This document shows, one piece after another, positions 21,043 through 39,003 of a stretch of 64,000 nucleotides of DNA. Source of the stretch: Candidatus Gottesmanbacteria bacterium (GTDB lineage Bacteria; Patescibacteriota; Microgenomatia; UBA10105; UBA927). Every line of letters starts with the position of its first letter. Within the stretch, counting starts at the first letter, position 1. Location of the stretch: contig JAHFKN010000001.1 in NCBI GenBank assembly GCA_023245355.1, forward strand, positions 75,528 to 139,527. Direction: 5' to 3'. A model generated the notes under the pieces. The model worked only from the letters and a program-made list of their open reading frames with translations. It was not told the DNA's origin and searched no databases. Made by a program: the position numbers and the translations under genes.

Positions 21043-21129
21043 TGCCGAGGGCGGGGGTCGAACCCGCACGAAGTGTTAAGCTCCACGGGCTCTTAAGGCC
21101 CGCGTGTCTGCCAATTCCACCACCTCGGC
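21043..21129 (-). tRNA. tRNA-Leu(UAA)
   Basis: GCCGAGG TG GTG GAATTGGCAG ACAC G CGGGC CTTAAGA GCCCG, a long variable arm, GCGGG TTCGACC CCCGC CCTCGGC A. Confidence 0.75.
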
Positions 21130-21207
21130 TATATAATTTTATTAATATGCTGTTGCCCCAGTCGCTTTGAGGGGCCACCTCGGCTATATTATTTTATTAA
21201 TACGCTG
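21120..21207. repeat. 33-bp direct repeat (2 mismatches) duplicating the tRNA-Leu(UAA) 5' terminus plus 21 nt of upstream sequence (copies 21120-21152 and 21175-21207)
   Basis: ccacctcggctatataattttattaatatgctg versus ccacctcggctatattattttattaatacgctg. Confidence 0.7.
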
Positions 21208-21258
21208 CTGCTTCCGCTGCTGTACGCGGCCTCAACATCAGTGATAATTATACCGCAT

Positions 21259-22780: not shown

Positions 22781-22964
22781 ATTAAAGACGTGCTTTCGCC
22801 TTAAGAATTAAGCAGTATTGAAGAATACTGAGGAGTAGAAATGTAAGCGTAATAATGTGCACCATCTGGGACGATGTTAGAACCTATCTAACCTCCTCTA
22901 TTGATCCAAAAGAGAAAGCTAGTCTCATCATTTCCATCGCTCATTTTAAGAAGGAGGGAAAACA

Positions 22965-23486
22965 ATGAGTTACAATTCGTCCTATATGGGCTCTCAATCT
23001 AACTCTCGCCAGACTGCAAATGCTATTTTAGCAGATGAAAACTCCTTTTACTATCGATTCGAGCGTGATTTGGATCAGGCAAAACACGAGGTAATCATTG
23101 AAAGCCCATTTATCACTGTTCCAAAGCTACGAAATTTGAAGCATGCCTTTGAGTCCTTAATGGAGCGCAAAATAGCAGTGTTTGTCATAACTCGGCACCC
23201 AGAAGAGCATGAATCGTTCATGGCCGAACAAGCTGAGGCAGGAATTCAGTTTTTTGAAAAAATAGGTGTACAAGTGTTTATGAGCAAGACTCACCATAGG
23301 AAATTAGCCATGATTGACCGTAAGATCGTCTGGAAAGGCAGTCTTAACATTCTGTCACACAAGAATAGCCGCGAACTTATGGAGCGCGAGGATGACGAGA
23401 AGAAAGCTAAAGACCTGTTTTCCTTTCTCAAATATGATCATGTCAGTGAAATACAAAATATTTGTTATACTAAGGAGGAAATATGA
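22965..23486 (+). CDS. Single-HKD phospholipase-D-family nuclease (Nuc-like)
   Basis: HHRKLAMIDRKIVWKGSLN is a perfect match to HxKxxxxDx6GSxN. At 173 aa the size is typical of Nuc/NucT-type dimeric nucleases. Confidence 0.75.
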   Translation: MSYNSSYMGSQSNSRQTANAILADENSFYYRFERDLDQAKHEVIIESPFITVPKLRNLKHAFESLMERKIAVFVITRHPEEHESFMAEQAEAGIQFFEKIGVQVFMSKTHHRKLAMIDRKIVWKGSLNILSHKNSRELMEREDDEKKAKDLFSFLKYDHVSEIQNICYTKEEI

Positions 23487-23713
23487 ACGATACAGTAACC
23501 AAAAAGTCAGAACTAGTCATTGATGCGCTCCAATATGCGCACGATCACAATTTGGATATCAGCAACATAATTGATGTACAGAAAATACTCGATGTTCTTG
23601 ACCCTGAGCACAAAGAAAATGCCTCTGAGTTTGCTGAGCTTCTCAAAACCTCAGATACTTTTATGGGCATGAAAGCTCGTGATTTGAAATCCGAAGACAA
23701 ATTACCCAATTAA
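23483..23713 (+). CDS. Small acidic protein (76 aa) translationally coupled (ATGA overlap) to the PLD nuclease
   Basis: The start overlaps the upstream stop. The sequence is Asp/Glu-rich. Confidence 0.35.
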   Translation: MNDTVTKKSELVIDALQYAHDHNLDISNIIDVQKILDVLDPEHKENASEFAELLKTSDTFMGMKARDLKSEDKLPN

Positions 23714-24006
23714 CTAGTTATTTTCTCGTCGATAATTGCTTGGCACCGTGATTTTGCATAATCCCTCGCATGAAAGGCACATGATTTATCATCACATTTG
23801 ATGAATGGATCATCACCAAACCCAATATAGGATTCATACAACTGTTCTGCATTCATTTTTGGTTGGTATGAGCTTTTCAGGCAGTCATCAACAATCTTCT
23901 TGCAGGCAACAATCGCTTCCTCACAGGTGTCATATTCACCATGCATATACCTCTCGCTCTCGTCCATGAAGTGAAAGTTATCATCAACAAATACTTGGTA
24001 TGTCAT
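23710..24006 (-). CDS. Small Cys-rich protein (98 aa), last gene of the ATPase-NERD operon
   Basis: Cys-containing segments CEEAIVACKK...DDC...KCDDKSCAFH. It overlaps the NERD gene stop by 4 nt. Confidence 0.35.
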   Translation of the reverse strand: MTYQVFVDDNFHFMDESERYMHGEYDTCEEAIVACKKIVDDCLKSSYQPKMNAEQLYESYIGFGDDPFIKCDDKSCAFHARDYAKSRCQAIIDEKITS

Positions 24007-24722
24007 ATTGCTTTTGTGTATGTAGCTTTTACTATATCGACTATACGCTGATCTGGATAGCTTCGAGGCTCGCTAGTAATCATTTTAATTAGCCAACGAT
24101 ACTGAATAACTCGAACGTTTTTAATTGGCTGAATACCGAATCGAACAATGGCGAAGCGATGGGAAAAGACAATGATTGGAATCACAAATGCGCTGGAGAT
24201 GCCTGAGCCCATCAAATGATCATGTAGAGAGGTGGCTTCTCGCATGGCTTGGCGCAGAAAGTCTTTCTCAAATGATTTTTGATTTAGAGTAAGTTCGTCA
24301 CCATTAAATCCAACTGTCCCGTGGTGATTCTTGACCTCTATAGCGTGAATCCCTGTTGGTCCTACAACCACAAAATCAATATTTTCTTTCTTACCAGGGA
24401 CATGGACATCTTCAAATACGGTATAGTTAGCATCCAGTTTTTTTAATTCATCGCCGATAAGCATCTCTCCGACGATACCGCTCCGAAATTTATACATTAG
24501 CGATTCTTCTTTTCTCATGAGTGAGTCAGTTACAAGCAGAAGTGGTCCAAATACCAGAGTGATTGCAAAGACTGCAGGTAACGAGAAAGAAGCGATAGAC
24601 AATCTCCAGATCACTATACCTATGATGATGGTGAAGTAAATTAAGTAGGCTAATGCGCCGTATTTACTTATGGTCTTATTTGCATTGAGATATCGACTGG
24701 GATGACCATAAATTACTGCCAT
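24003..24722 (-). CDS. Membrane-anchored NERD (nuclease-related domain) protein
   Basis: Two N-terminal TM helices. NIDFVVVGPTGIHAIEVKNHHG matches the NERD core ([DE]-x-D-h-h-h-x-x-x-G-h-x-h-h-E-x-K). Confidence 0.55.
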   Translation of the reverse strand: MAVIYGHPSRYLNANKTISKYGALAYLIYFTIIIGIVIWRLSIASFSLPAVFAITLVFGPLLLVTDSLMRKEESLMYKFRSGIVGEMLIGDELKKLDANYTVFEDVHVPGKKENIDFVVVGPTGIHAIEVKNHHGTVGFNGDELTLNQKSFEKDFLRQAMREATSLHDHLMGSGISSAFVIPIIVFSHRFAIVRFGIQPIKNVRVIQYRWLIKMITSEPRSYPDQRIVDIVKATYTKAI

Positions 24723-24729
24723 AACATAT

Positions 24730-26973
24730 TTATATAATTTCTATGACTTCGAAGAAATCCCTAATAATACCTCTTAAGTCTCCCACAGAGAAACTATCAC
24801 GCTTAACTTGTGAATCAGAATCGTCATGGTTCCAAAAATGTGCGGATAACGAGTTTATTTTTTGCGCTTTGTCACCATCATATGTACCATCAGAAGTTAG
24901 TTTTTTAACAAAAGATGAAGTACTTCCACCATCCGCAATTTCAGTTTTAAGGCGTAGGTAATATTTTCGCTTAAAAAGTTGTTCAAGCACATCCCTAATC
25001 GATCTAAGTTTTTCCCAATTTACTTCAGTATCTGGTGCGGATTCTAAAGCTTTTAGTTCTTCAATCTGACGATAATATGTATCTAAGTATTCCTCGTTAG
25101 GTAGCATCAATTCTAAAGTAGAGGTACTAGTTGAAGGATTGTAGACAATTTTGAAACTTTTATGTTGAGGGATATGCTCATTAAGAAGTGCGAAGAATGA
25201 CTGTTCATGTGTAAGGATAATCAATTGTTGGGGTTTTGATTTGGTAATAAATTTATTTAGAAGTATAACTGTTCTTAGTTTTCTTTCGGCATCAAGACTG
25301 GACAAAGGATCATCTAATACGATTATTTTATCTTGAATATTGGCCTGAGCTTTAAGACTAGCAATAAAGAATGCAAAAGCTAGCAATCTTTTATCGCTTT
25401 CGCTTAAAGTATTTCCAAAGTGTTGAACCTCGTCGTGATCTGCCGAGAGTGCTATTTTATGGCCCGAAAAACATATTCCAAAAAGTGGAGCAGTGCTTCT
25501 TATTCCAGATTTTGGTTTTGTATCCACAAGTTGGAAATCGGCTTGCAGCTCTTTCAAAATACTGTTTACTTCTGTTTCATAGGTAGCAAAAATACTCTCG
25601 GCGTATTTGCTTTTAGCCTGCAAAGAAGTGTCTCTAATATTTGTTAGTTCTTTCGTTTTTTGATCCAATACTTCGTATTCAATACAAAAATCTGTCCAGA
25701 GTTTTTCGCCACGTTGTTTTGTTAACTCTAATACTGACTTTTCATTAGATAAAGTTTGATGTTTATTTTTGTCGTAAGGACTAGAATATTCAGCTTGGAG
25801 CAATATAACTTTCCCCTTTACCTTTTTTAAAGCAGATAATATTTTTTGAAGGGAATCAAAATTTATTGCATAATCCAAATTACTTTTAGATGAAAGTTCT
25901 TTCTTAAATAATGATATATTGTCATTGATTTCTGTGATTTCAGAGTTGAAATCGACCTGAATTCCCATAGCGGAAAGTTCACCGGAATATCGCCTAAGCT
26001 CTGCCTCGATTTTCCATGAAATTAGATGGTTGGATGCTTCTTTAACAGAATTAATTAGTTGCTTATAAGACTCGCTAAACATTGTTTCATAAGTCTCAAT
26101 CAAGGACTTTGCGTCATTGACGATAGGTTGACCACAAAATACGCAATGTCGTGTTTTTTCAGATTTGTCAGAGTCTTTAAGTAGAAATGTGCCTTGCGCA
26201 AGAAATCGCTCGGCACCATCATCCGATCGCAGGTGACTTAATATATGTGTTTTAATCTCTTCTTGATGAAATGAAATTGTTGGCGACAATTTCGGCTCCA
26301 AACTTTCAAGGCTATCAGAATTAATAGCCTTTATAAGTTCGTCAAGTTTATCTTTTACGTTCTGATATTGACTGTAGGCCTTAATTTCATTTTCTTTCTG
26401 AGTTATTTTATTATCAATATCTGAATCAGGATCAATTTTCCTAAAGGAATCAAAGCTGACTTTATAATGTCCTAAATGTCGAGTGTATTCTCGTGTAATT
26501 TCGGCCTTACGATTGGCATTCTTTTGACACTCTAGTTCTGCGTCTGAAAAATCCTTTTCTAATTTTTTGCCTTCCTCCCCAAGAATAATTGTTTGGATTG
26601 ATTTTTCGTTATCCGCTGTTATTGATTCATGTAGATACACATTTTTTGCTACGAATCTTGTGTCAAAAACTGTGATATTTGGACAACTTGTATTCCAAGC
26701 GCCAGTATTAAACGTGTGTGTGGTCGTTGATTTATCGTCACCAGTATTTATATTTACAGATTGTTCGTCTGTTGCTCCGAATGTTTTCCGGCCAACAATG
26801 TAGCATGGATCATTTGTGCTTAATGAGGTTAGTATGGCAGTTAGAGTGCTTTTGCCTTTTGCGTTAGGTCCGAAGAAGAATGTATTTGGTGCAAAATTAT
26901 ATTCACTACCTTTACCCATCGAACAAGCTCTAAGTTTTCCTACATTCTTGATATTTAGAATTTTTTTAATCAT
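24730..26973 (-). CDS. RloC/AAA_13-like ABC-type ATPase with coiled-coil CxxC zinc-hook (747 aa); no recognisable C-terminal nuclease domain
   Basis: Walker A is FFFGPNAKGKSTLT near the N-terminus. A long coiled-coil insert carries HCVFCGQP (CxxC). Walker B/D-loop is IIVLDDPLSSLD and the H-loop is IILTHEQSF. This layout matches SMC/Rad50/RloC-type ABC ATPases. Confidence 0.55.
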   Translation of the reverse strand: MIKKILNIKNVGKLRACSMGKGSEYNFAPNTFFFGPNAKGKSTLTAILTSLSTNDPCYIVGRKTFGATDEQSVNINTGDDKSTTTHTFNTGAWNTSCPNITVFDTRFVAKNVYLHESITADNEKSIQTIILGEEGKKLEKDFSDAELECQKNANRKAEITREYTRHLGHYKVSFDSFRKIDPDSDIDNKITQKENEIKAYSQYQNVKDKLDELIKAINSDSLESLEPKLSPTISFHQEEIKTHILSHLRSDDGAERFLAQGTFLLKDSDKSEKTRHCVFCGQPIVNDAKSLIETYETMFSESYKQLINSVKEASNHLISWKIEAELRRYSGELSAMGIQVDFNSEITEINDNISLFKKELSSKSNLDYAINFDSLQKILSALKKVKGKVILLQAEYSSPYDKNKHQTLSNEKSVLELTKQRGEKLWTDFCIEYEVLDQKTKELTNIRDTSLQAKSKYAESIFATYETEVNSILKELQADFQLVDTKPKSGIRSTAPLFGICFSGHKIALSADHDEVQHFGNTLSESDKRLLAFAFFIASLKAQANIQDKIIVLDDPLSSLDAERKLRTVILLNKFITKSKPQQLIILTHEQSFFALLNEHIPQHKSFKIVYNPSTSTSTLELMLPNEEYLDTYYRQIEELKALESAPDTEVNWEKLRSIRDVLEQLFKRKYYLRLKTEIADGGSTSSFVKKLTSDGTYDGDKAQKINSLSAHFWNHDDSDSQVKRDSFSVGDLRGIIRDFFEVIEII

Positions 26974-27023
26974 ATTTCTAATTAAGGCGATTTTATCACT
27001 TTATCAGGCATAAGTGCTCAAAA

Positions 27024-27635
27024 TTATATCTTAGGTAAAAATACTCTCGGATTTACTGGTATTCCATATATTCTTGTTTCAAAGTGTAAGTGTGGTCCGG
27101 TTGCCCAGCCTGTTTGCCCCTCTTTCCCAATGGTGTCGGTAATAGTTACTTTCTGCCCTTTGTAGACGTAGATTTTGTCTAGATGAGCATAGATGGTAGT
27201 GATGTTGTTTCCATGGTCGATGATAACGTGTTTACCATACCCCCAGAATATCTCTCCAGCATAGGCAACTTCGCCATCCATCGCGGGGTTTATGGGATCG
27301 CCAATTTGTCCAGAGGGGTTGGCAATATCAATACCTGTGTGAAAGACCTGATACAAGCTAGACTGGCCAAATTCGAGGGTAATGACTCCGTGAACCGGCC
27401 ACACTACTTGTGGAGATATGGATTTAACAACTTCCCCGGAGGTTGGATCTTTGATCTCGATGGACTGCGTAACAGGATTACTTTCAACCAACTTGTCTGA
27501 GATTATGTTTATACCAACTCGAGTGAGTAGAATTATCCCGATAACTGGAACCATGAGGATAGCTAGAAAGGCTAAAAAGACAAATTTCAATTCCTTACGA
27601 AATGACCAGAGAGTAAGGAAGAGTTTTGGATTCAT
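27024..27635 (-). CDS. M23-family metallopeptidase (cell-wall hydrolase of the T4SS operon), N-terminal TM
   Basis: HTGIDIA...GYGKHVIIDHGNNITTIYAHL...GPHLHFE contains the HxxxD and HxH M23 zinc motifs. Confidence 0.8.
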   Translation of the reverse strand: MNPKLFLTLWSFRKELKFVFLAFLAILMVPVIGIILLTRVGINIISDKLVESNPVTQSIEIKDPTSGEVVKSISPQVVWPVHGVITLEFGQSSLYQVFHTGIDIANPSGQIGDPINPAMDGEVAYAGEIFWGYGKHVIIDHGNNITTIYAHLDKIYVYKGQKVTITDTIGKEGQTGWATGPHLHFETRIYGIPVNPRVFLPKI

Positions 27636-27637
27636 AC

Positions 27638-29422
27638 TTAGATGTAGATTTCCCGAGGATCGGTCGTGAGGAGTGGCTGTTCTTCTTCAGAGGCTACTAC
27701 TTTAACTGCAACATGGTTTTGATCAGCTATGATGAGAGCCTCACCCCGTTCACAAGTTAAAAGATAATGCTGTTCAAAGGCAGAAAGATGGAATTCTTCA
27801 GCCACTTTTTTGATGGTGGTAGTATCTTGGCGCATAAGTATACGAAGTGATGATTGACTGGCAATGGCCTTGCCATATTCCTGTGAGAGGAAATCATTGG
27901 CTTGTTGCGTGATGATTGTGACACCCAGATAGTATTTTCTGGCGCGTCTGACGAGCCCTGAGATAAATCTGGCGCTTTCTGGCTCTTGGAGGAGTATCCA
28001 GCCCTCGTCAATAACAAGCATGCGTTTTTGTGGATTCTGCTTGACCTCGCTATGCACGAAATTAGCCACAACCATCATCATGATCTGACGAAGTGACTCA
28101 TTTAAGTCTTTAATATCAAACACAACGAGGCGATTATTCATCTCGATATTGGTCTGGGAATCAAATACTCCGCCAAGCGAACCTTTCACAAATCTCTCGA
28201 GTCGGTTGCAGAGGTCTTTGTGTTTCATTGTCTTCAGTTCTTTGTAAAAATCTTTAAGCACTGGATAGGCAATCTTTGCGGGCTTCTTGCCATTCTTACG
28301 CTTGCTCAGACCTGAATTTTTATAAGTTTGTAGAAGCGCACGATCCACCGTTGCCCGCTCCTCCGATGTCAGACTGCCAACCATGAGAGAAATGAGCTCT
28401 GTAAGGTCTTGTATGTGCTCAGCGAGGCTATTCTCACCCGTGACTGAGCTTTGGTAATCAAAAGGGTTAATTTTTTCCTTGGAGGTGCTAGAGAGCTTGA
28501 TGTACGTTCCGTTGACGCTTTTAGCCAGTTGCTTATATTCGCGTTCTGGATCAATGACTATGACTTTTGTACCTTGCATGAGGTGACGCAGGATCTCGAC
28601 TTTGGCAGTAAAGCTCTTGCCTGAACCGGACTGGGCAAAAATAATCGAATTGGCGTTGTTTAGACTATAACGATCGATGATAACCAAAGAATTATTGGAT
28701 TTATTGATTCCATAGAGGATACCGGACTCTTGGACGAGTTCGGATGAGACAAAGGGAAAGGTTAAAGCAGCGCTTGAGCTATCCAAGTTACGTTTTTGTG
28801 CCAGCTTGTTTTCGCCACGAGGCAACATTGATTGCAACGCTTCGATTTGTTGGAAAGTTGCAGGTTTTATATAGAAAAGTCTTGTCTGCATGACTGTTTC
28901 CAATAGCTTAGTTACTTTATCAAGTTCAACTAGACTTTCAGCCGTAACGGTCATGTAAATAGAAACTTGGAACAGTTTTTCCATACCCCGCTGGATTTTG
29001 TCTTTGAGTTCCATGGCTGATTCAAGCGGATCAGTGATTTCACTTCCGATAACACGTCCCTCTTTAAGCATGGTGCGCTTGGTGGACTCAAGCTCTGTGA
29101 TTTTACGGTTAAGTTTGGGCAGTGCTATGAGAGGATCGATCTGCTCGATGTGATAATTGATGTCGATATTGTGGTTAAAGTTCACGAGCATTGAAAGCCA
29201 GCCAGTCGAAGCCACATAGGGATACCCTGAAACAAAGAGTGTTCGGACGAAGGTATCGTTTATTTGTAAATAGCTCGATTCCTCTTTAAGTCCGGCATAG
29301 GAAATAAGGTCGAGTTGGTCTTGTTCGCCAAACGTGACGTTGATAGCTTGGTGGGCTAAGCGTTTTTTCTTTTGACGCTTTTGCCAGTCACGAATTGGTT
29401 TGATTTTGGTTAGGTTAAACAT
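27638..29422 (-). CDS. VirB4-family conjugative transfer ATPase (TcpF/PrgJ/Orf16-like)
   Basis: Walker A is FAQSGSGKSF. VIDPEREY follows. The DUF87-like layout matches Gram-positive VirB4 homologues. Walker B is RMLVIDEGW. Confidence 0.75.
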   Translation of the reverse strand: MFNLTKIKPIRDWQKRQKKKRLAHQAINVTFGEQDQLDLISYAGLKEESSYLQINDTFVRTLFVSGYPYVASTGWLSMLVNFNHNIDINYHIEQIDPLIALPKLNRKITELESTKRTMLKEGRVIGSEITDPLESAMELKDKIQRGMEKLFQVSIYMTVTAESLVELDKVTKLLETVMQTRLFYIKPATFQQIEALQSMLPRGENKLAQKRNLDSSSAALTFPFVSSELVQESGILYGINKSNNSLVIIDRYSLNNANSIIFAQSGSGKSFTAKVEILRHLMQGTKVIVIDPEREYKQLAKSVNGTYIKLSSTSKEKINPFDYQSSVTGENSLAEHIQDLTELISLMVGSLTSEERATVDRALLQTYKNSGLSKRKNGKKPAKIAYPVLKDFYKELKTMKHKDLCNRLERFVKGSLGGVFDSQTNIEMNNRLVVFDIKDLNESLRQIMMMVVANFVHSEVKQNPQKRMLVIDEGWILLQEPESARFISGLVRRARKYYLGVTIITQQANDFLSQEYGKAIASQSSLRILMRQDTTTIKKVAEEFHLSAFEQHYLLTCERGEALIIADQNHVAVKVVASEEEQPLLTTDPREIYI

Positions 29423-30032
29423 AATTGTGTTTGAATAATGCGGATAATGCTTCTTTTGTAATCGCCTGGGTCTTTACCGATTCAGGGTTATAAAAGCTGT
29501 AGAACAAGTTAATAATCTCGATACTTGAGAGTGTTTTAGCTTTCATCTGCATCCGCTCCAAGCCTTTGACGACAATATCGCGATTTAGATTTAAGTGTTC
29601 TTTGATTACTTTCCAATCTTCGTGCCGGTCTGGGTGATGATATGGCAATACGATGTAAAATCGTCTTGAGAGAATACTGTTACCTGAGACGAGCTTTTTA
29701 ACGAATGCACTATATCCCTCGATTTGCTTGCGATAGATCGGATCTTTCTCTTTGTCCTTTGATCTAGCCACATCTTCAGCGTATTTGTCGATATCAATCT
29801 CTCGAACTCGTACCAAGATTTGAATCTGGCAAGGTAAGGCATTTAGGAAGTTTTGGAAACTATCGATCATGACGTCCTGTTCTTCTTCACTCTTGAGCTC
29901 GAAGTTTATGGATGAGGTTTCCAAAATCAACCGATATTCCTGGTTAGGCAAAACCAGAACATTATCCAAGACTTTTTTGATTTGTATTTGCTGTCGCGAT
30001 GATAGAGATTTATTGAATAATGTCATAGTCAT
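29415..30032 (-). CDS. Hypothetical T4SS-operon protein (205 aa)
   Basis: Overlaps the virB4-like start. No motif recognised. Confidence 0.3.
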   Translation of the reverse strand: MTMTLFNKSLSSRQQIQIKKVLDNVLVLPNQEYRLILETSSINFELKSEEEQDVMIDSFQNFLNALPCQIQILVRVREIDIDKYAEDVARSKDKEKDPIYRKQIEGYSAFVKKLVSGNSILSRRFYIVLPYHHPDRHEDWKVIKEHLNLNRDIVVKGLERMQMKAKTLSSIEIINLFYSFYNPESVKTQAITKEALSALFKHNYV

Positions 30033-30499
30033 TTCCTCCCATACCGAAACGATACAGCCAGATTCTTTGATGCCATTGCCTGTTCAAATTTGATAAGTTC
30101 CTTGATCGACAGCTCTTTAGTGAGCCTCTTGGTTGTTTTTGCTACTGCCTTTTTGTGGTTTGCTACAGATTCAAATGGCAAATCAACTAACCGCTCTGTT
30201 ATGTCATTTTTATTGAAGATGTAGAATTTCGGACGTAACTTGTAACGAAGTAATATTCCAATCCACTCAGCAACGATTTTGTCTTTGATTCTTACTGCCA
30301 AAACAAGTGAGATAGCGCTCACTAACAGCACCAAGCTTACCTTGTACGGAGCGAGCTTCATTGCTGGAATAAATATTGCGTATACCAGTGTCCCCCAGAG
30401 AACAGGCATCATCAGAAGTAGAATCTGCGCGAAATTGAGAGATCCTGCGATTTTGTCTTCAACTGTCGTGATTTGTGCTGGAATGATTGTTGTTCTCAT
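30029..30499 (-). CDS. Small membrane protein of the T4SS operon (VirB3/PrgI-like topology)
   Basis: Two TM helices (LLLMMPVLWGTLVYAIFIP; VSLVLLVSAISLVLAV). It sits directly upstream of virB4, as VirB3 analogues do. Confidence 0.35.
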   Translation of the reverse strand: MRTTIIPAQITTVEDKIAGSLNFAQILLLMMPVLWGTLVYAIFIPAMKLAPYKVSLVLLVSAISLVLAVRIKDKIVAEWIGILLRYKLRPKFYIFNKNDITERLVDLPFESVANHKKAVAKTTKRLTKELSIKELIKFEQAMASKNLAVSFRYGRK

Positions 30500-31773
30500 A
30501 CGTTTAAGGTCTTTCTGGGTGTCTTGGCGCCAACTGTACCTTTGTGAGCTGTATCAGTACTCATGACGTTAATAATCTGACTTCCCATGTGTTTGACCGT
30601 TCCCACACTTCGAGAAAATAAAATTAGTTGCATCAAGAAGCTTGGGATCTTAAGCAACGTGAGTAAAAGTCCAATGGCTACCGCAATTGAGATCAGTGAG
30701 TTATTGGTTTGCTCAGGGAGTGCCAGGAATGATCCGGCCAGTTGAATAGTTACGACATGAATAAAAATCATGAATACTGAGACTAGATAGCTTTTAATCG
30801 CCATTTCTGCAAAGTCGGCGGTCTTAGGGAGTGTCCAAAGTAAGAATATGAACGGAGAGAGTACAGCTCCAAGAGCTATAACGATCAAACGGCTGATATA
30901 CATAAGTAGGAGCACAATCGCTACGATCAAGAACAGAAGCAGAAAAATCAAAGTGATGAGTGGAGCTGTACCAGTCGTAATATTTTGCAGAGTAATTGCG
31001 TTCGTGACCCAGGCATGGTTGAGTCCTCCAGTTGCAGATATCACACCTGCTACGAGTGCGTTACAGGTTTTTACGGCGTAGTCAGCGAGGAATAGAGAAA
31101 CATTTGTTCCAAGGAATGCTAGCCCAATTCTAGGCAGGAGATGTTTAAATTCAATCTCTTCAAACCCGAATGTTGAGGCGCTCATAAACTGAAGACCTAG
31201 GAGTGCCACAACCAACACGAACAGCGTATCTGTAATCCCGAGCATGATTAGCCAAAATTTGACGATTGAGGCATTCTCAAGAAGCGATGGAGTGGTTGAT
31301 AAAAACGTCATAATCCCATCAACTATTGGTTTAGTGGAACTTTCAACTATGTTTTGAATAAAGCCGTTGACTGCATCAATAAGGACTTGGGTCAAACCGT
31401 CGCTTGGTGCCACACTCTCAATTTGGGTAATTGGTAGATTGGATGCGGTAGTAGTTGTACCATCACCAACTAAAGCTCCAGATAGAAATGAAACAATTGA
31501 ACTGGCAGCAAAAACAACAACCAAACCTATCAAGGCATTTCTGATAGTTTTCTTGGCTTCTTCTAAAGCATCCGGCTTACCAGTAGAGGTAATGTAGATA
31601 TAGCCACCCCGAATTAAAAAAAAGACCGCTGCTGCGGCCGAGATAAGTGTAACTATTGAAAGAGCGTCATTGGTAAACGCTGTCACCTCCGTAGGTGCGC
31701 TAGTTGAAGCATACGCAAGCGTTGGAGAAAAGAGTGCTATGAGTATGGTTACGACCAATACTAATAATTTCAT
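30496..31773 (-). CDS. Polytopic membrane protein, VirB6/TrbL/PrgH-like channel component
   Basis: Signal peptide plus at least 6 TM helices across the C-terminal two-thirds, with a central extracellular region. Operon position supports the call. Confidence 0.45.
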   Translation of the reverse strand: MKLLVLVVTILIALFSPTLAYASTSAPTEVTAFTNDALSIVTLISAAAAVFFLIRGGYIYITSTGKPDALEEAKKTIRNALIGLVVVFAASSIVSFLSGALVGDGTTTTASNLPITQIESVAPSDGLTQVLIDAVNGFIQNIVESSTKPIVDGIMTFLSTTPSLLENASIVKFWLIMLGITDTLFVLVVALLGLQFMSASTFGFEEIEFKHLLPRIGLAFLGTNVSLFLADYAVKTCNALVAGVISATGGLNHAWVTNAITLQNITTGTAPLITLIFLLLFLIVAIVLLLMYISRLIVIALGAVLSPFIFLLWTLPKTADFAEMAIKSYLVSVFMIFIHVVTIQLAGSFLALPEQTNNSLISIAVAIGLLLTLLKIPSFLMQLILFSRSVGTVKHMGSQIINVMSTDTAHKGTVGAKTPRKTLNV

Positions 31774-31801
31774 ATTTGTTCATATTCCAATATTGGCCGA
31801 C

Positions 31802-32137
31802 TTACTGAGCCGCGCCAAATGCTCCAGTTGCCAGATCTGAAACAATATTTGTCAGCACGAAAGCACCAAGCACAACTGCAAGGCCAATGGCTGAATACAA
31901 AATTGTTTTTTTGGAGCGATCAAGTGTTTCTGGGTTGCCTGAGCTAGTAATGTAGCCAACGCCTCCCCAGACGAAGAATCCAGCAGAAATGAGTCCGGCA
32001 AGTGTTACAAGTACCTGGATGACACTTTTTATGAATGTTTCGATTTTGGTAACATCTCCCGAAGCAGCAAAGACTGGTGAAGCAAAAGTCAGTGCCGTGA
32101 TGGCGACTGATGAGAAGATAATAATCTTTTTATTCAT
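31802..32137 (-). CDS. Small secreted two-helix membrane protein, pilin/VirB2-like
   Basis: Signal peptide (AITALTFASPVFA) plus two hydrophobic helices. It is the first gene of the T4SS operon. Confidence 0.35.
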   Translation of the reverse strand: MNKKIIIFSSVAITALTFASPVFAASGDVTKIETFIKSVIQVLVTLAGLISAGFFVWGGVGYITSSGNPETLDRSKKTILYSAIGLAVVLGAFVLTNIVSDLATGAFGAAQ

Positions 32138-32190
32138 AACCTACCTCCATATAAATTACTAATTTATAAATATTAGGCAGGTCTGGTTAC

Positions 32191-32220
32191 AAAAAAGCCC
32201 CTATCTGGAGGGGCAGCTCT
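32191..32220 (-). terminator. Hairpin (GCCCCT-atctgg-AGGGGC) followed on the minus strand by TTTTTT; rho-independent terminator-like, about 60 nt upstream of the pilin-like gene
   Basis: Read directly from the sequence. A-run on the plus strand and T-run on the minus strand. Confidence 0.4.
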
Positions 32221-32338
32221 GTTGAACTTGAGGGAATTATTATCCTAACCAGGCTAAATGTCAACTAGATGTAGTCAGATAATTAACAGTTTGTGACAAA
32301 CCTAGAAAGTAAACCCTATCGGACATATAATAAGCTAT

Positions 32339-33727
32339 ATGGTCATGGAATCGGAAGCTCCTGTTCAGGAATTGTGGCAAACTATTAGGGAAGGTGTTGA
32401 TCCAATAGTTAAGGAAATTCAAGCAAGCGGATATGACACTGCAAAAAGAATAAAAGGTCAAATTGACATAGACCAGTTGCCTAATTATTTAAGGCCATAC
32501 TTTAAGCCAGAATTTTACGAACCAGAAGTATTTATTACTGACAGACCAAGCAAAGTCTTTGGTCAAAACGAAACAATCTACACGATCACATCTTCACTTT
32601 CTCTTGAAAATTTACGAGATGGCAAACTGTTAACACCGCCTTCTGAACACAGTCCATTTGATCAGAACATTCAGACTCATCGTGGTATCGGACTAGCACT
32701 CTTTTCAAAACTTATGAATGGGTTCGGTTTTAGGCTTGGTGCGAAGGATTCGTTTTTGTGGCTTGGTCCAAATATTGATGGTGAACAATTCGTACTTGAA
32801 GATAATATCTCAAAAAGCGGAAGAGCTGTCGATGAAAAAATTGCATCCCATCTCTTTAATCATACCAACTTAAAAGATGGGTATCGCAGTTTAGAAATTC
32901 ATCCACGCTTACGGAAAACTCTTGAAGCTATTAATAATGGTAAGTCACTATATGGTGTCGATCCTGAAACATCCACTTATATTGACGAATTACTTGATAC
33001 TTTGCATCTATACACAGGCGTACGAGAGGGGTGGTTTAATTCGTTGGAAGGTTTTCTTAAAGGAACTATGTCACCAAAAAAGCGAATAGATCCTGTAGAC
33101 ATTGATTTATCTTTAACATTTGCTGCGCACGAATTAGCTCAGCCAAGTCCACGAGCATCACAGGCCCTCATTTTAGAAGTTGATGCGGCAAAATTGATTT
33201 CAATGACACCTATCTACCCTTTTCCACTAACATCACGCCCGCCCGAGACTATTGTCCCTGCACCACACCTACCTCTTGAAGCGGTTAGGGCTGTATATGT
33301 TGAGCGTGAACCTGAAACATTAGGGCATTTAAAAGGTATTTTTAGAAGTATCGAAGAGTTACCAAAAAGCAATTGGTTGAGAGATGCAGATGATAATACG
33401 GTCACACCTGACATTGCCAGAAGAAATGGAGTAAATCCCAGAAGTCCAGTGTGTGCCTTACGATACAATCGAAATCCTGTTAGTGTATGGGCTGAGCATC
33501 TTGAAAATGGCGATATGGCACCTTGGAACGAAGTTCCTTATGTTGACTTAACACCACCAGTTACCTTTTTAGATCATGCACTTAAAAATGTCATTCTAAG
33601 AAGGGCTAGAAAATCTGGTTTAATTGAGAAAGTTTCGCGAATTACAAACAATCAAGATGTTACTGAGACTAGAATACTCTCAGAAGCATCAAATCTTTCA
33701 TTACCTTCGATAAAGCACGTTCGCTAA
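32339..33727 (+). CDS. Hypothetical protein (462 aa), island cargo
   Basis: Long ORF with no recognised motif. Confidence 0.4.
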   Translation: MVMESEAPVQELWQTIREGVDPIVKEIQASGYDTAKRIKGQIDIDQLPNYLRPYFKPEFYEPEVFITDRPSKVFGQNETIYTITSSLSLENLRDGKLLTPPSEHSPFDQNIQTHRGIGLALFSKLMNGFGFRLGAKDSFLWLGPNIDGEQFVLEDNISKSGRAVDEKIASHLFNHTNLKDGYRSLEIHPRLRKTLEAINNGKSLYGVDPETSTYIDELLDTLHLYTGVREGWFNSLEGFLKGTMSPKKRIDPVDIDLSLTFAAHELAQPSPRASQALILEVDAAKLISMTPIYPFPLTSRPPETIVPAPHLPLEAVRAVYVEREPETLGHLKGIFRSIEELPKSNWLRDADDNTVTPDIARRNGVNPRSPVCALRYNRNPVSVWAEHLENGDMAPWNEVPYVDLTPPVTFLDHALKNVILRRARKSGLIEKVSRITNNQDVTETRILSEASNLSLPSIKHVR

Positions 33728-33848
33728 TTTTCCACTTGGATATTTAGGGGCCTTGCCCCTCATTTCGCAAGGGTTTTCGTTTCACTCCAATAAACTGCGC
33801 TTCGCTTGCCCTTGCAAAATTCACCCCGCTTTAAAAATTCTCAGGTAT

Positions 33849-33870
33849 GGGAAGTATGGCCATACTTCCC
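33849..33870. promoter_or_regulatory. 22-bp perfect palindrome gggaagtatgg|ccatacttccc, 45 bp upstream of ORF 33915
   Basis: Exact 11+11 inverted repeat with no spacer. Confidence 0.5.
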
Positions 33871-33914
33871 AACCATTAATTTTCGGGAAGAAGCCAAGAA
33901 GGAGGTGAAAACCT

Positions 33915-34229
33915 ATGAAACTATTAACAAAAGAGCTTATCAAAAGATTTGAGCAAGTCGGCAGACAGGAAGACTCTAGCGATCCTCTCGTTATTGTAAA
34001 GTTCTTCAACCCTTGTGGAGCAGGTACATGGTACGCAACCGAGTACGATCCAGAATCGAGAGAGTTTTTCGGATTCGTTTCAATCTTTGGGGATTGGAAT
34101 GACGAATGGGGATCTTTTTCTCTGGATGAACTCGAAAACTATCACGGCAACTTTGGATTAGGGATTGAGCGGGATCTGTATTTTGACGAGCAGCGAATAA
34201 GTCAGGTTGTCCCAAAAGCAAAATTATAA
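33915..34229 (+). CDS. Hypothetical small protein (104 aa)
   Basis: The RBS aaggaggtg lies 8 nt upstream. The sequence is acidic. Confidence 0.35.
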   Translation: MKLLTKELIKRFEQVGRQEDSSDPLVIVKFFNPCGAGTWYATEYDPESREFFGFVSIFGDWNDEWGSFSLDELENYHGNFGLGIERDLYFDEQRISQVVPKAKL

Positions 34230-34291
34230 ATATATAGTATCCACCGCGGGGCCCCAACCCCGCGGATGGGTATCCAAGAAAGGAAAAATAT

Positions 34292-34495
34292 ATGATTAGA
34301 ATATTACCAGTATTTAAAGGTTATACAGTCGATTTACGACTGCAAGAGTTTAGAAAAATTGAAATGGATACGCTACCCGAGTTTATCCCGCTATTAAGTG
34401 ATAAAGGGGCTCGACTGTTTAATGAGTTTAGACAAACAGAAGAAGGCAGAAAAGAAATTGCTTACGTACTTGGGAGGCGCCTAGGCGAATACTAG
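34292..34495 (+). CDS. Hypothetical small protein (67 aa)
   Basis: The RBS aaggaaa lies upstream. Weak call. Confidence 0.25.
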   Translation: MIRILPVFKGYTVDLRLQEFRKIEMDTLPEFIPLLSDKGARLFNEFRQTEEGRKEIAYVLGRRLGEY

Positions 34496-34518
34496 CTTAA
34501 AAGGTCTATAATAAAGGC

Positions 34519-35016
34519 ATGATCAAGAAGATAGTGATATTGGTCGTGTTTTTATTCTTGGCTGGGAGTGGTTATTATTTTTTCACAAAGCCAAACGAAG
34601 AAAATTTCAAAGCGCCAGGGAAAGATTGGGAATCAGCCAAAAAGGTAGAAGATTATTTTATTGAACGCCTGCATATGCCAGTTGCTGAGGCCGAGCAGAT
34701 TAGATCGAAGCCAGGAGTAGACGGAACAGCAGATTTACGAATTAGTACAGAAGTTACTCTCGACGCTCTTATAGGAAATCTTTACTATTACGGCTTTGTA
34801 CGAGATGAAAAAGCGTTCAGGTATGCGCTAGAACACACCAAGGACACCACGCCAAGCGATAAGGCTATCAAAGTCGGCAAGGACGGTACGATTGACACCA
34901 ACGCAGAATATAGAATTTCAGAAAGCATGAGCGCGTGGGAGTTGGCAGATTTACTACTCAATAAACCTGAGGGACATTTTCCATTTGATGAATATAACTA
35001 TTTCTTTATGCCGTAG
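34519..35016 (+). CDS. Membrane-anchored hypothetical protein (165 aa)
   Basis: N-terminal TM helix (IVILVVFLFLAGSGYYFF). Confidence 0.35.
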   Translation: MIKKIVILVVFLFLAGSGYYFFTKPNEENFKAPGKDWESAKKVEDYFIERLHMPVAEAEQIRSKPGVDGTADLRISTEVTLDALIGNLYYYGFVRDEKAFRYALEHTKDTTPSDKAIKVGKDGTIDTNAEYRISESMSAWELADLLLNKPEGHFPFDEYNYFFMP

Positions 35017-35790
35017 TTATTCATCTTCAGCTTCCACTTTTTCCCAATGACCTGAAAATGCACCCTCTCTAGTTGCAAGGTATATAGCTACTTGATCAAG
35101 CGGTGTTTCTTCATAAATACGGGCTATATGTTTCTTTAAGTAGATCATGCTGCCGTATCCAGGGCAGATAAAAAGTATGGCCGGAAATGGATGGTTAGTC
35201 GCCTCCTCAAATTTTCCGTCATCGATATAATCACAGTACTCTTGGACTCGCTTGCGCAAGGCAAACCGAGGCGAGCTATCTTCAACTACTTCAACAAAGT
35301 ATCTTTTTGTATTGCCAGCAATATCTACCCGAGCAAAATAGGCATCGGGTAATGGGTGAGGCATGTAGGGGTGTGCCAGTAGATCTGTTTTGGTAAAGAA
35401 ATGGAGTGTGTGCTTGGTTTTTTCTGATTCTTGGCTTAGATGTAAGAAGTACTCTGCTAAAAATGAGGTATGAGCGATAAATTGTTGAGATCTGATTTTC
35501 TCTCTGTAGATTCGTTTCAAGGCTCGTTTATCGATATTATCTTGTTGTTCTAATATCTGGATACTTCCTGACGTTAGATAATAGACTGCTGGGAGATTAG
35601 CTAAGCCTAGTGATCGTGTGTAATGTTTGCCAATGTAATTTTTTGAAGTGAGTAGTTGTAAGTGGTAGTTAGTCAGGCGGATAGTTTTGTGAATAAGTAG
35701 TTTTTGAAGTTGTAGACTGGTTAAGAAGCGAAAGCGATAGAGATAGTGAAGAATGTTGAGTTGTAGAGCGGATAGTTTTTGATTGTCCAT
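35017..35790 (-). CDS. Replication-relaxation (Replic_Relax)-family-like protein; candidate DNA-processing (relaxase-like) factor
   Basis: The N-terminus LSALQLNILHYLYRFRFLTSLQLQKLL resembles the Replic_Relax N-terminal wHTH motif found in Gram-positive conjugative elements. Confidence 0.4.
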   Translation of the reverse strand: MDNQKLSALQLNILHYLYRFRFLTSLQLQKLLIHKTIRLTNYHLQLLTSKNYIGKHYTRSLGLANLPAVYYLTSGSIQILEQQDNIDKRALKRIYREKIRSQQFIAHTSFLAEYFLHLSQESEKTKHTLHFFTKTDLLAHPYMPHPLPDAYFARVDIAGNTKRYFVEVVEDSSPRFALRKRVQEYCDYIDDGKFEEATNHPFPAILFICPGYGSMIYLKKHIARIYEETPLDQVAIYLATREGAFSGHWEKVEAEDE

Positions 35791-35912
35791 AGTATGTGTA
35801 GAGCAGAATCTGGAATGATTGTATCATTCCTCTCCCTTATATATAAGGAATAAGGGGTAAAAGTAAAAGTTAAAAAGGTCTATTTATCGGGCTAAACTAA
35901 AAATCATATTTT

Positions 35913-35924
35913 CCTACCGGTAGG
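35913..35924. promoter_or_regulatory. 12-bp perfect palindrome cctaccggtagg immediately downstream of the coupling-protein stop
   Basis: Read from the sequence. Confidence 0.35.
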
Positions 35925-35929
35925 TAAAG

Positions 35930-38521
35930 TTATGGCACTGTAGAATAGATCTTTTGTGTAGCTTGATTAGTAGTTTTTTTGACTGGTATTTGTTTATCTG
36001 GAGTGTAGAACTTGGCATACAATTTTCTCGACGATTCAACAACCTCATTAACCCTATTCTGACTGTATTCGATTTGTACTGGAACGGTAACACCTGAAAA
36101 TGGTTCTTCTGGGTTAAGTGCTCCAAGCCTCATGTAAAAGTGATATGAGGGAAGGCTCGCGATTTCACCCTGTTCGATGTATGGCCTGAATTGTGGCAAG
36201 ATCATCCGTTCATCCTCAGGGTTAGCTGTTCTAAAGCAAATTACTGTACCCGTATTAGCTAGGGTGATATTTACGAGTGAAACATCCTCAAGTTGTGAGG
36301 TGGTTTGGTGAGCCAAGATAGCGCCAAGTCGATATTTTCGCGCCTCTGAGAGGATTTGGGCAAACGCTGGGGTAGCAAAGTTTTGGAACTCATCAACGTA
36401 CAGGAAGAAGTCTTTTCTTTCTTCCTGCTTCATCCTGGCTCTCTTTAAGGCTGCCAACTGAATCTTGGCCATGATAAGTACTCCAAAAACTTCTGAGTTG
36501 TCTTCTCCAATCTTGCCTTTTGAGAGATTACATAAGAGTATTTTCCCTTCATTCATGATGGTATCGAAGTTTACGGTTGATTTACCTTGCTCAAGTATTC
36601 GCTTGGCTGTCGGGGAAAACAGGAAACGACCGATCTTATTGGTTATAGGAGAAATCATTTTCACTTTTTGATAATCACCCGCTTTGGCAAATTCAAACTT
36701 CCAGAAATCGTTAAGATTCTCATCTGTCAGGTTTTTGGTAACAGATTTTCGGTAGCTCGTGTTAATGAGTAGTTTGTAAACCGTAAACAAGGTAGCATCT
36801 GGGACGGTAAAGGCGGTATGGATAGTATTTCTCAAGATGTATTCCATTCTTGGCCCTGAGTATTTATCTGTGTAGATTTTATGGAAGACCGAGATAATAC
36901 TTTCTGCTATAAATTCTTTTTCTCTGATAGCATCTTCAGGATTTAACCCTGGAGTTAGTTCAAGAAGATTGATACCCATAGGATAGCTAATGTCATCTGG
37001 ATTAAAGTAGACTACATCCTTGATCCTCTCACGAGGTATTACAGACAATATCTGCTCAATCAGATCACCGTGCGGGTCAATCACCGATAACCCTTTGTTA
37101 TGATCAATATCTTGCTTAATCATCGATAGCAACATCGTGGACTTTCCTGTGCCGGTAGCTCCAAGAATATACACATGGCGCCGTCTTTCGTCAGCGGTTA
37201 ACCCTATTTTAGTCTCAGTGCCACCATAGGTATTTGTCCCAAAGTACAAATCACTTTCTTGTTTCTGCTTAAGTGATAATGGAGCGGGCAATTCTTTACT
37301 GTGTTGCTTGAGCAAATCCTCAGTCTTAGTCGTACTGGTATAGGGAAAGTGATAGAGATCTGATACCTCAGTGGCCGAGAGAATAAATGATCTAGTTAGT
37401 AGAAAAAACCTCAAGTTGTAAAGTGATTCCATTATTCGATCAAATATCTTTACTCTGATCCGAAATGACGGAATGAGTGCCTGGTACTCCGAATTATTAA
37501 GCGCGGAAAGTGCAGATTGAAAACCTCGTTCCCGTTTTCTAAGTTCACTATAATTATTGCTTGCTACCATGAGCCGTACAGATGCCGAGAATAACTGTTG
37601 ATCTAATTTATTCTTTACCAGTTGTTCCAGTTCCATCTGATACGGGTTTGGTGTTTTGAGTGGTTCGATATCGGTTGGAAGCCGTAGCATCGGACCTTCT
37701 CTGCCATCTGTTGTGATAAAGACTAATAATCCAAATGGAAGCATCAGTATACGAAGTATTAAACCGAAGAGCATTTTAAATAAGACTACAACTGGATTTG
37801 AGCTTGCATCATTGCCCAAGTTTGAAACAATATCTTTACCTGAGTAAATAAGATGAGAGATACGCGAAACGTCAGGAAGTGAAGATTTACGCAGAGGCGA
37901 TAATACGACCTGAAATGCAGTTAGATCATCATCACTTAACTTAGTCATACTTCCTGTTAGGTATGCTATTGGATCATGGCTGGCTAAATCCTCTTGGTGT
38001 TTTAGTGGGTATGCAAAGTGTCGTGAAAGTCTATAACTAGATATTCGTTTATGTTGCTTAGTAAGTAACTCCAGATAATCAGTCGTTTCTTTTACACTGA
38101 TTCCGGGTAGATAGGATAAGAGGGTTTTCTTAACTAAGTCAGCTTCATCTTCCCCAATTCTTGTGTAATAGGTTATTCCGCCATTCTTCGTCGAAACTAT
38201 CTCAAAAGAATAGGTTTTTTGGATATCAAATAAACGGTTGATAAATGATCGTTGTCTGGCGAGCCCATGCAGAATGGCAAATAATTGCTGAGTTGTATAT
38301 GAAGACTGTTCTGTATTTTTGAGAGGTTTAATCTCAAAAAGGATACTTTTCTCTTTTAATTGTTTAATGAAAAGATATACGCGAAATATCTGAAAACAGA
38401 CATATATGAGCACCAAAGCCAGTAAAACTATCTTGAGCGGAGTAATAAAGGGACTAAATGAAGTGAGGAACGAAGTTAAATACGTAGCTAGAGTTTGTTG
38501 TATGGAAGTTATATTTGGCAT
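35930..38521 (-). CDS. Type IV coupling protein (VirD4/TraG/FtsK-like ATPase), 2 N-terminal TM helices
   Basis: Walker A is HVYILGATGTGKST. Walker B is FFLYVDEFQNF. The N-terminal TM segments are characteristic of T4CPs. Confidence 0.75.
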   Translation of the reverse strand: MPNITSIQQTLATYLTSFLTSFSPFITPLKIVLLALVLIYVCFQIFRVYLFIKQLKEKSILFEIKPLKNTEQSSYTTQQLFAILHGLARQRSFINRLFDIQKTYSFEIVSTKNGGITYYTRIGEDEADLVKKTLLSYLPGISVKETTDYLELLTKQHKRISSYRLSRHFAYPLKHQEDLASHDPIAYLTGSMTKLSDDDLTAFQVVLSPLRKSSLPDVSRISHLIYSGKDIVSNLGNDASSNPVVVLFKMLFGLILRILMLPFGLLVFITTDGREGPMLRLPTDIEPLKTPNPYQMELEQLVKNKLDQQLFSASVRLMVASNNYSELRKRERGFQSALSALNNSEYQALIPSFRIRVKIFDRIMESLYNLRFFLLTRSFILSATEVSDLYHFPYTSTTKTEDLLKQHSKELPAPLSLKQKQESDLYFGTNTYGGTETKIGLTADERRRHVYILGATGTGKSTMLLSMIKQDIDHNKGLSVIDPHGDLIEQILSVIPRERIKDVVYFNPDDISYPMGINLLELTPGLNPEDAIREKEFIAESIISVFHKIYTDKYSGPRMEYILRNTIHTAFTVPDATLFTVYKLLINTSYRKSVTKNLTDENLNDFWKFEFAKAGDYQKVKMISPITNKIGRFLFSPTAKRILEQGKSTVNFDTIMNEGKILLCNLSKGKIGEDNSEVFGVLIMAKIQLAALKRARMKQEERKDFFLYVDEFQNFATPAFAQILSEARKYRLGAILAHQTTSQLEDVSLVNITLANTGTVICFRTANPEDERMILPQFRPYIEQGEIASLPSYHFYMRLGALNPEEPFSGVTVPVQIEYSQNRVNEVVESSRKLYAKFYTPDKQIPVKKTTNQATQKIYSTVP

Positions 38522-38586
38522 AATCCGACCTTAATAGGCAGGATTTAGTTGAGAGTATACAGGAAGTTGCCGTTGTGAGCAAAAGC

Positions 38587-38811
38587 TTAAAACGGTAGGA
38601 CTTGGGATGATTTAATCTTGAGCGCCTTGCAAATACTTTCGATCACTGAAAAAGTAGGGTTTTCTTCTCCTCGTTCAATGCCAGCATAGTGGGTTGTAGA
38701 AATTTTACTCAGTACCGCAACCTCTTCTTGTGAAAGTTTTTTATCCTCCCGAACAGAGCGCAGGTTTTTACCGAACGCTTTCTGGCTTTTTTCATCTGGC
38801 AACATATTCAT
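38587..38811 (-). CDS. XRE-family helix-turn-helix transcriptional regulator (74 aa)
   Basis: LSQEEVAVLSKISTTHYAGIERGEENPTFSVIESICKAL is a classic HTH_3. Confidence 0.7.
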   Translation of the reverse strand: MNMLPDEKSQKAFGKNLRSVREDKKLSQEEVAVLSKISTTHYAGIERGEENPTFSVIESICKALKIKSSQVLPF

Positions 38812-38899
38812 AATCGTAGTATATCACTCGCAATTTGACGGTAGTTTATCAAAGAACTCTCATTTCTTCAAGTTATAGGACATAGTTTGAGCCTAAATA

Positions 38900-38990
38900 T
38901 CCTCTGTAACTATAATTATAATTTAGCCTTGAAATATGCTTGACAACTACAACTATAATTGCTATTCTGTAACTATAGTTGTAGTTTATT
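38900..38990. promoter_or_regulatory. Operator/promoter region between divergent XRE gene and recombinase operon: 13-bp inverted repeat aactacaactata/tatagttgtagtt (38945-38957 / 38974-38986) plus direct repeat tctgtaactata (38903-38914, 38966-38977) and TTGACA box
   Basis: Read directly from the sequence. Confidence 0.5.
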
Positions 38991-39003
38991 TAAGAGTACA
39001 GCC

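Follow-up and report, generated by a model that had tools for sequence, protein, structure and literature searches.

A probable single-gene RloC-family anticodon nuclease as exchangeable cargo in a defence hotspot of a small integrative and conjugative element

Introduction

On a contig from a Candidatus Gottesmanbacteria bacterium, three open reading frames (ORFs) of the same orientation follow each other closely inside an integrative and conjugative element (ICE). They encode a large ABC ATPase with a zinc hook, a membrane protein with a NERD domain, and a small protein of 98 amino acids (aa). Do the three form one defence system, or is the ATPase a self-sufficient defence gene placed in front of two genes that belong to the element? 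The stretch analysed, here called the window, is 64,000 nucleotides (nt) long (GenBank assembly GCA_023245355.1, contig JAHFKN010000001.1, positions 75,528 to 139,527 of the forward strand). Positions refer to the window, and loci from other genomes carry L numbers.

A preliminary description of the locus had proposed a new three-gene defence operon, in which a RloC-like ATPase without a nuclease domain relies on the NERD protein as its nuclease. We suggest instead, with a probability of roughly 0.78, that the 747-aa gene is a self-contained RloC-family anticodon nuclease that works alone and occupies a defence hotspot of the ICE as a cassette, while the NERD and 98-aa genes are genes of the ICE and not its partners. 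The gene is of the known RloC kind, and the ATPase adds one member to that kind, not a new three-gene system.

Results

The ATPase carries its own nuclease domain

The three ORFs are present with the sizes, the order and the 4-nt overlap between the NERD and 98-aa ORFs that had been described, and a gap of 7 nt separates the ATPase stop from the NERD start (Table 1). The Walker A, D-loop, H-loop and CxxC motifs reported earlier for the ATPase are likewise all in place: GPNAKGKS starts at residue 35, CVFCGQ at 277, LDDPLSSLD at 553 and LTHE at 587. The ABC signature, LSESDKR, starts at 523. In a family alignment of 30 homologues (22-60% identity), the ABC motifs GPNAKGKS, LSESDKR, LDDPLSSLD and H589 are invariant or nearly so. 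The hook cysteines, C277 and C280, lie about 240 residues past Walker A and about 275 ahead of Walker B.

The protein matches Pfam AAA_13 (E=7e-25), as the preliminary description had expected, and its best PADLOC match is PDC-S06 (model PDLC04895, E=1e-56), with five more PDC-S06 models matching. Searched against solved structures, the family profile finds Rad50 heads (E about 4e-6) and the Rad50 hooks 1l8d and 6zff (E 2e-4 to 8e-4). The coiled coil is supported by these hook matches and by a low proline and glycine content over residues 100-550, and not by a dedicated coiled-coil predictor. Two of the homologues (P0030 and P0038) bear the JGI name 'wobble nucleotide-excising tRNase'. A housekeeping SMC, RecN or RecF ATPase was considered and rejected, as had been anticipated: neither Pfam nor NCBIfam gives such an assignment, and the gene is variable cargo of the ICE.

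The last 150 residues had been described as unlike a nuclease, and here the earlier view has to be reversed. Across the 30 homologues, R660, E664 and H716 are the only invariant residues of this region, and structure prediction models the C-terminal ~150 aa as a HEPN fold. A HEPN nuclease domain of the RloC/PrrC type is part of the ATPase itself. The definition of RloC by Davidov and Kaufmann comprises ABC motifs, a coiled-coil insert with a CX2C zinc hook, and a C-proximal Arg-X3-Glu-X36-52-His motif, which corresponds to R320/E324/H356 of PrrC and R692/E696/H737 of G. kaustophilus RloC; mutating any single residue of this triad abolishes the anticodon nuclease (PMC2610378). In the ATPase the triad reads R660-x3-E664-x51-H716, inside the published spacing, and the landmarks K41/C277/D554/R660/E664/H716 are collinear with K44/C291/D572/R692/E696/H737 of the G. 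kaustophilus protein. The gene fits RloC, a known single-gene system, because it has the ABC motifs and an invariant CxxC hook in the RloC layout, which bears out the RloC likeness that had been noted earlier.

Relation to known systems

With the RloC prototypes of G. kaustophilus and A. baylyi the ATPase shares the ABC head, the hook insert, the R-x3-E-x51-H triad, the HEPN-like C-terminal domain and the spacing of its landmarks. Homologues of both lie at times within type I restriction-modification (R-M) loci, and the gene usually stands alone. It differs in the residue before the catalytic His (Asn, not Ser), in being known here from sequence alone, in riding as an ICE cassette in what is likely a bacterium of the candidate phyla radiation (CPR), and in that its nearest relatives are often coupled to a DUF2130 gene, which is not described for RloC.

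The E. coli anticodon nuclease PrrC, which acts on tRNA-Lys, is likewise a member of Pfam AAA_13 and has the same combination of an N-terminal ABC ATPase domain with a C-terminal Arg-Glu-His HEPN nuclease. However, PrrC lacks the coiled-coil insert with the zinc hook and always occurs within a type Ic R-M system that silences it, while our ATPase has the hook and no R-M genes are found in the ICE, so that it falls outside PrrC. PDC-S06 of PADLOC is also a single-gene candidate and provides the best model for the ATPase; it is, however, a computational candidate class whose best match covers mainly the N-terminal half of the protein, and the literature that we found places it in inventory tables and lists only, with no functional test. 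Rad50/SbcC proteins share the ABC head, the antiparallel coiled coil and the CxxC zinc hook, but they have no C-terminal HEPN domain and use Mre11/SbcD as partner nuclease. The ATPase is not a housekeeping repair protein.

RloC biochemistry indicates how such a protein could act. DNA-break inducers activate RloC in vivo without an R-M partner. By analogy, the zinc hook would keep the nuclease silent, until linear DNA ends, for example from phage attack, stimulate ATP hydrolysis and turn the nuclease on. The active HEPN domain would then excise the wobble nucleotide in the anticodon loop of tRNA, and translation would stall. The NERD and 98-aa genes would be co-transcribed with whichever cargo lies upstream of them.

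The ATPase is an exchangeable cassette in a defence hotspot

Close homologues of the NERD protein (73-97% identity) outnumber those of the ATPase, and the contigs that carry them share one backbone order: VirB4, M23 peptidase, a variable region, NERD, the small protein (not in all) and the convergent 76-aa and PLD genes. The content of the variable region is listed in Table 1. In a sample of about 20 loci, NERD is retained beside at least nine different cargos, and the M23 peptidase flank is conserved in L007-L009, L011 and L017-L019. The M23|NERD slot is a defence hotspot, with conserved flanks, sharp borders and a variable content enriched in defence genes. That a defence-type gene occupies a cargo position of an ICE, as first described, is supported. 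In ICE relatives the same slot holds recognised defence systems.

The borders can be placed precisely. In blastn comparisons with eight ICE relatives that carry other cargo, homology ends at 27036-27039 and restarts at 24712-24734; these breakpoints bracket the ATPase ORF and a short leader and leave NERD outside the cassette. The GC content changes accordingly, with 0.347 in the ATPase cassette, 0.403 in NERD, 0.391 in the small gene and 0.40-0.44 in the flanks. The NERD alleles do not follow the cargo: in L012, which carries the ATPase, NERD is 95% identical to that of L007, which carries Gabija, and 86% identical to that of the window, while the ATPase is 96-99% identical between backbones whose NERD proteins are 86-92% identical. 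Other cargos are also tightly spaced to NERD, with gaps of 6-62 nt, so the short distance reflects insertion into a compact operon and not a specific coupling.

Hotspots of this kind are an established concept for prophages, satellites and ICEs, and SXT-type ICEs provide an example. Like those of P2/P4 and others, the slot has conserved flanks, nucleotide-sharp borders and interchangeable defence cargo; what sets it apart is its place in the type IV secretion system (T4SS) operon of a small ICE from a likely CPR host, flanked by the genes for an M23 peptidase and a membrane NERD protein. In a limited literature search we found no published description of a hotspot between these two genes. NERD as a common effector for all cargos was considered and rejected, as Gabija, CBASS, Qat and ABC-3C are self-contained.

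Some cargos have no defence annotation, namely the DUF2779 genes on the opposite strand in L010, L014 and L022 and the 185-aa gene that follows the TPR-PIN protein in L019. Their position makes the DUF2779 proteins and the 185-aa gene candidates for new defence genes. There is also a second variable slot, with the small gene on one side and the convergent 76-aa gene on the other. In three relatives it holds a 73-aa helix-turn-helix protein and a 545-aa protein without family match, and in L012 additionally an IS66-like transposase fragment.

Table 1. Positions of the features in the window, and of selected genes in related loci (L numbers). Cells without an entry were left empty.
Sequence	Feature	Positions	Strand	Evidence or remark
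Window	ABC ATPase with anticodon-nuclease domain, probable RloC-family single-gene defence cargo	24730-26973	-	747-aa ORF; Pfam AAA_13, PADLOC PDC-S06, family alignment
Window	Walker A GPNAKGKS (residues 35-42)	26848-26871	-	N37, G40, K41, T43 invariant in alignment
Window	CxxC zinc hook C277-V-F-C280 in helical insert	26134-26145	-	both Cys invariant, n=30 homologues
Window	Walker B / D-loop LDDPLSSLD (residues 553-561), then H-loop H589	25291-25317	-	
Window	C-terminal HEPN-type anticodon-nuclease domain (about residues 625-747)	24733-25101	-	
Window	Triad codons R660; E664; H716	24994-24996; 24982-24984; 24826-24828	-	
Window	Exchangeable cassette (hotspot limits): ATPase ORF and ~60-nt leader	24735-27036	-	blastn breakpoints, GC
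Window	M23 peptidase, N-terminal transmembrane helix; upstream hotspot flank (T4SS operon)	27024-27635	-	Pfam PF01551 E=5e-29
Window	Membrane-anchored NERD (PD-(D/E)xK) protein, 239 aa; downstream hotspot flank, ICE backbone	24003-24722	-	PF08378 E=6e-17
Window	98-aa protein, widespread uncharacterised family, invariant DDN-H-DE-ER motif	23710-24006	-	ORF, family alignment
Window	Convergent backbone pair: PLD-family (Nuc-like) 173-aa protein and 76-aa ORF	22965-23713	+	PLDc_2 E=2e-9; kept in ICE relatives
Window	ICE, approximate extent	22856-40830	not assigned	T4SS, relaxase, recombinase genes; left homology limit
Window	Second variable slot	23713-23740		
Window, L012, L013, L015, L020, L025	Slot content: ATPase			
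L007	Slot content: Gabija			GajA E=1.6e-215, GajB 3e-112
L008	Slot content: 614-aa AAA_15/21 ATPase			
L009	Slot content: type II CBASS			SMODS, Cap2, JAB, membrane effector
L010	Slot content: DUF2779	3-1124	-	
L011	Slot content: ABC-3C / PDC-M68 system			E=5e-183
L014	Slot content: HerA with KTSC protein, plus DUF2779	2157-3563 (DUF2779)	-	
L016, L018	Slot content: QatABCD			
L017	Slot content: IS200 transposase only			
L019	Slot content: 1245-aa DUF4365-TPR-PIN protein and 185-aa gene	8425-8982 (185-aa gene)		
L022	Slot content: DUF2779	1-528	-	
L006	Second-slot content	2192-4054		
L012	Second-slot content	2091-5003		
L021	Second-slot content	788-2650		
L026	DUF2130 adjoining ATPase	2326-3510		39% identity; 0-nt gap
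L052	DUF2130 adjoining ATPase	8229-9482		45% identity; 4-nt overlap
L111	DUF2130 adjoining ATPase	8285-9603		47% identity
L043	DUF2130 adjoining ATPase	788-2035		
L055	DUF2130 adjoining ATPase	2884-4128		
L072	DUF2130 adjoining ATPase			
L112	Cas4-like PDDEXK_1 adjoining ATPase	4952-5377		58% identity; 2 nt downstream

Neighbourhoods of the ATPase homologues

A scan of species-representative genomes yielded 80 loci with ATPase homologues from many phyla. Their commonest neighbours are type I R-M genes: of about 80 loci, 17 have an HsdM/HsdS cluster and seven have HsdR; in L031 the order is HsdM-HsdS-ATPase-HsdR, and type II R-M genes occur at some loci too. RloC owes its name to this 'restriction-linked orf' context (PMC2610378).

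Hidden Markov models built from the NERD and small-protein families were searched against 82 ATPase loci. Neither protein was matched in 81 of these, by models that are biased to the subfamily and that a very divergent NERD could escape; the sole exception is a locus with the same ICE, in a copy that is 97% identical. When sampled neighbours were scanned with Pfam, R-M, DUF2130 and DUF4365 genes were found, and no NERD. The homologues outside the ICE in L004 (38% identity) and L005 (34%) have no NERD neighbour. The conserved pairing of ATPase and NERD genes in other genomes, whose absence the preliminary description had itself named as an argument against its proposal, is therefore not found.

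Several observations weigh against an anticodon nuclease that acts alone. Those ATPase relatives outside the ICE that are closest (39-58% identity) adjoin a gene of the PD-(D/E)XK superfamily, often in type I R-M loci, so this subclade of ATPases may not always act alone. The 7-nt spacing between ATPase and NERD is compatible with co-translation. Asn precedes H716, where RloC 'often' has Ser, and an NCBIfam search gives no specific model for the protein, only generic ABC transporter tails far under the cut-off. The likeness to the characterised RloC and PrrC proteins was established by the published motif definition and by landmark positions, not by direct alignment. Finally, tRNA cleavage, activation by DNA ends and anti-phage activity are inferred here from the G. 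kaustophilus and A. baylyi RloC proteins.

The first of these observations permits another explanation, in which the ATPase subclade works with a coupled PD-(D/E)XK DNase, as Rad50 does with Mre11, and the NERD protein of the ICE became a surrogate partner after capture of the gene. DUF2130 directly adjoins the ATPase in L026, L052, L111, L043, L055 and L072, and PDDEXK_1 does so in L112; DUF2130 and NERD are both catalogued as PD-(D/E)XK families. However, most loci lack the association, which was seen in 6 of about 80 and additionally in L111 and L112, and L004 and L005 have no such linkage. NERD and DUF2130 have no more than the superfamily in common, NERD is anchored in the membrane and present regardless of the cargo, the hotspot breakpoints leave it outside the cassette, and characterised RloC proteins act without a partner. 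We regard this explanation as unlikely. A two-component subclade, consisting of a HEPN-bearing Rad50-like sensor and a PD-(D/E)XK DNase, with NERD taking the partner's place in the ICE, is quite unlikely as well. Any functional partnership between the ATPase and NERD is given a low probability because NERD is independent of the cargo in the ICE.

The NERD and 98-aa genes belong to the ICE

The NERD protein itself is as it had been described. PF08378 is matched with E=6e-17, hydropathy shows two hydrophobic segments of 19 aa near the N-terminus (about residues 20-40 and 40-66), in keeping with two transmembrane helices, and the PD-(D/E)xK core (E86, D116 and E129-x-K131) is invariant in the family. 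Independently of the cargo, the NERD gene belongs to the conserved backbone of the ICE.

The 98-aa protein was called Cys-rich, which holds for the window copy with its six Cys and not for the family, where the Cys are unconserved. The family is widespread, with 45-60% identity across phyla, and its invariant residues include D8, D9, N10, H12, D15, E16, E18 and R19 in the motif FVDDNFHxMDESERY. No Pfam family was matched by the 98-aa protein, and PDB sequence searches with it and with NERD gave nothing useful. Its AlphaFold2 model is alpha/beta with a pLDDT of 89, and the top fold matches are ERH proteins (TM-score about 0.4, E about 2e-3), too weak a match for a function to be assigned. The gene is missing in the ICE relatives L009 and L016-L019, and distant homologues occur in unrelated chromosomal contexts, one beside HpaB and Uma2 and another beside DegT, Hfq and HflX. 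The gene is common in the ICE but not obligatory, and nothing ties its product to the ATPase.

A three-gene system, with a nuclease-less RloC-like ATPase that senses infection, a membrane NERD nuclease acting in trans and the 98-aa protein assisting, is very unlikely in view of these results. The genes do share one orientation and are closely packed, the catalytic core of NERD is intact, and the trio recurs in L012, L013, L015, L020 and L025, but each of these recurrences is a variant of one and the same ICE. The ATPase has its own HEPN domain, and NERD keeps its place beside slots filled with unrelated defence systems, so a nuclease supplied in trans finds no support; there is no co-variation between NERD alleles and cargo, the cassette borders exclude NERD and its GC content differs. 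The small protein, proposed as third component, is absent from several relatives and occurs alone in unrelated genomes. Thus, of the described operon, the ORFs and their spacing stand, while the functional three-gene unit does not, the pairing being absent outside the ICE.

A role of the ATPase in the ICE's own functions, such as maintenance or the processing of DNA during conjugation, instead of in defence of host or ICE, is barely credible: it does lie inside the T4SS operon, and neither a promoter nor a terminator was predicted for it alone, but the slot is filled by recognised defence systems in some relatives and nearly empty in L017, so that the gene is dispensable for transfer, and homologues occur in R-M loci of non-conjugative regions.

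The ICE and its host flanks

The setting is real: the element is an ICE of about 18 kb. It carries two T4SS pilins, PrgI, VirB4 (as ORFs of 205 and 594 aa), the M23 peptidase, a Replic_Relax relaxase, a coupling protein and a large serine recombinase, and it is bounded by tRNA-Leu(cag) and tRNA-Leu(gag). Its GC content is 0.34-0.44, versus about 0.50 in the flanks. The left limit of homology lies at about 22,850-22,857 in five relatives. No att-type direct repeats were found at the ICE ends, which are therefore approximate; this is as expected for a serine recombinase. The recombinase ORF (39170-40828) overlaps with its 3' end tRNA-Leu(gag), at 40819-40901 on the opposite strand, by 10 nt, and the other end of the ICE is about 470 nt from tRNA-Leu(cag).

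The two VirB4 ORFs (27638-30032, minus strand) are a 205-aa TraC-like N-terminal part and a 594-aa P-loop part that overlap by 8 nt. This split is not a frameshift artefact, because it is conserved in the ICE relatives. In a scan for promoters and terminators the counts were not above the shuffled expectation, and no signal was found between the cargo and the T4SS operon; the operon structure referred to here is deduced only from gene spacing and the absence of terminator-like sites.

The PLD-family protein of the backbone (22965-23486) is weakly similar to the PLD nuclease modules of MkoC (E=2e-12) and DrmC (3e-5), and it also resembles Nuc, an endonuclease of IncN plasmids. With this protein and NERD, the ICE backbone has two predicted nucleases, which flank the cargo region.

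Close relatives of the ICE are named Candidatus Shapirobacteria, and the genome that carries the ICE here is likely a CPR one, Microgenomates/Shapirobacteria-like. The same ICE is found in L025, a GTDB contig (JAJVHZ010000103.1) from the bin 'Gammaproteobacteria bacterium Bin_33', with 84.5% DNA identity over 9.4 kb and 97% identity of the ATPase; this could be either a misbinning or a transfer across phyla.

The host flanks (1-22000 and 41000-64000) are dense in tRNA genes, of which the window has 15, and include an ORF of 2079 aa at 1004-7243. The contig is no longer than 385 kb, in keeping with a small genome of CPR type. At 21120-21229, two tandem 55-nt copies that are 78% identical lie a short way downstream of tRNA-Leu(taa), in the interval between that gene and the RsmB-like gene.

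Discussion

The analysis removes a false lead, as the apparent three-gene system comes down to one gene for an anticodon nuclease of a known, single-gene kind beside backbone genes of an ICE. We found no published description of a linkage between RloC and DUF2130, and we flag this linkage as undescribed. If a two-component subclade did exist, it would combine a tRNA-targeting with a DNA-targeting response.

The hotspot is a more useful by-product of the analysis than the ATPase itself. It is precisely bounded, with M23 peptidase, cargo and NERD in this order, and is located within the transfer operon of this small ICE. Its unannotated cargos, i.e., the DUF2779 proteins and the 185-aa gene, together with the 545-aa gene of the second slot, are candidates for new defence genes. 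The locus also adds to the evidence for defence systems borne by a conjugative element in what is likely a CPR host.

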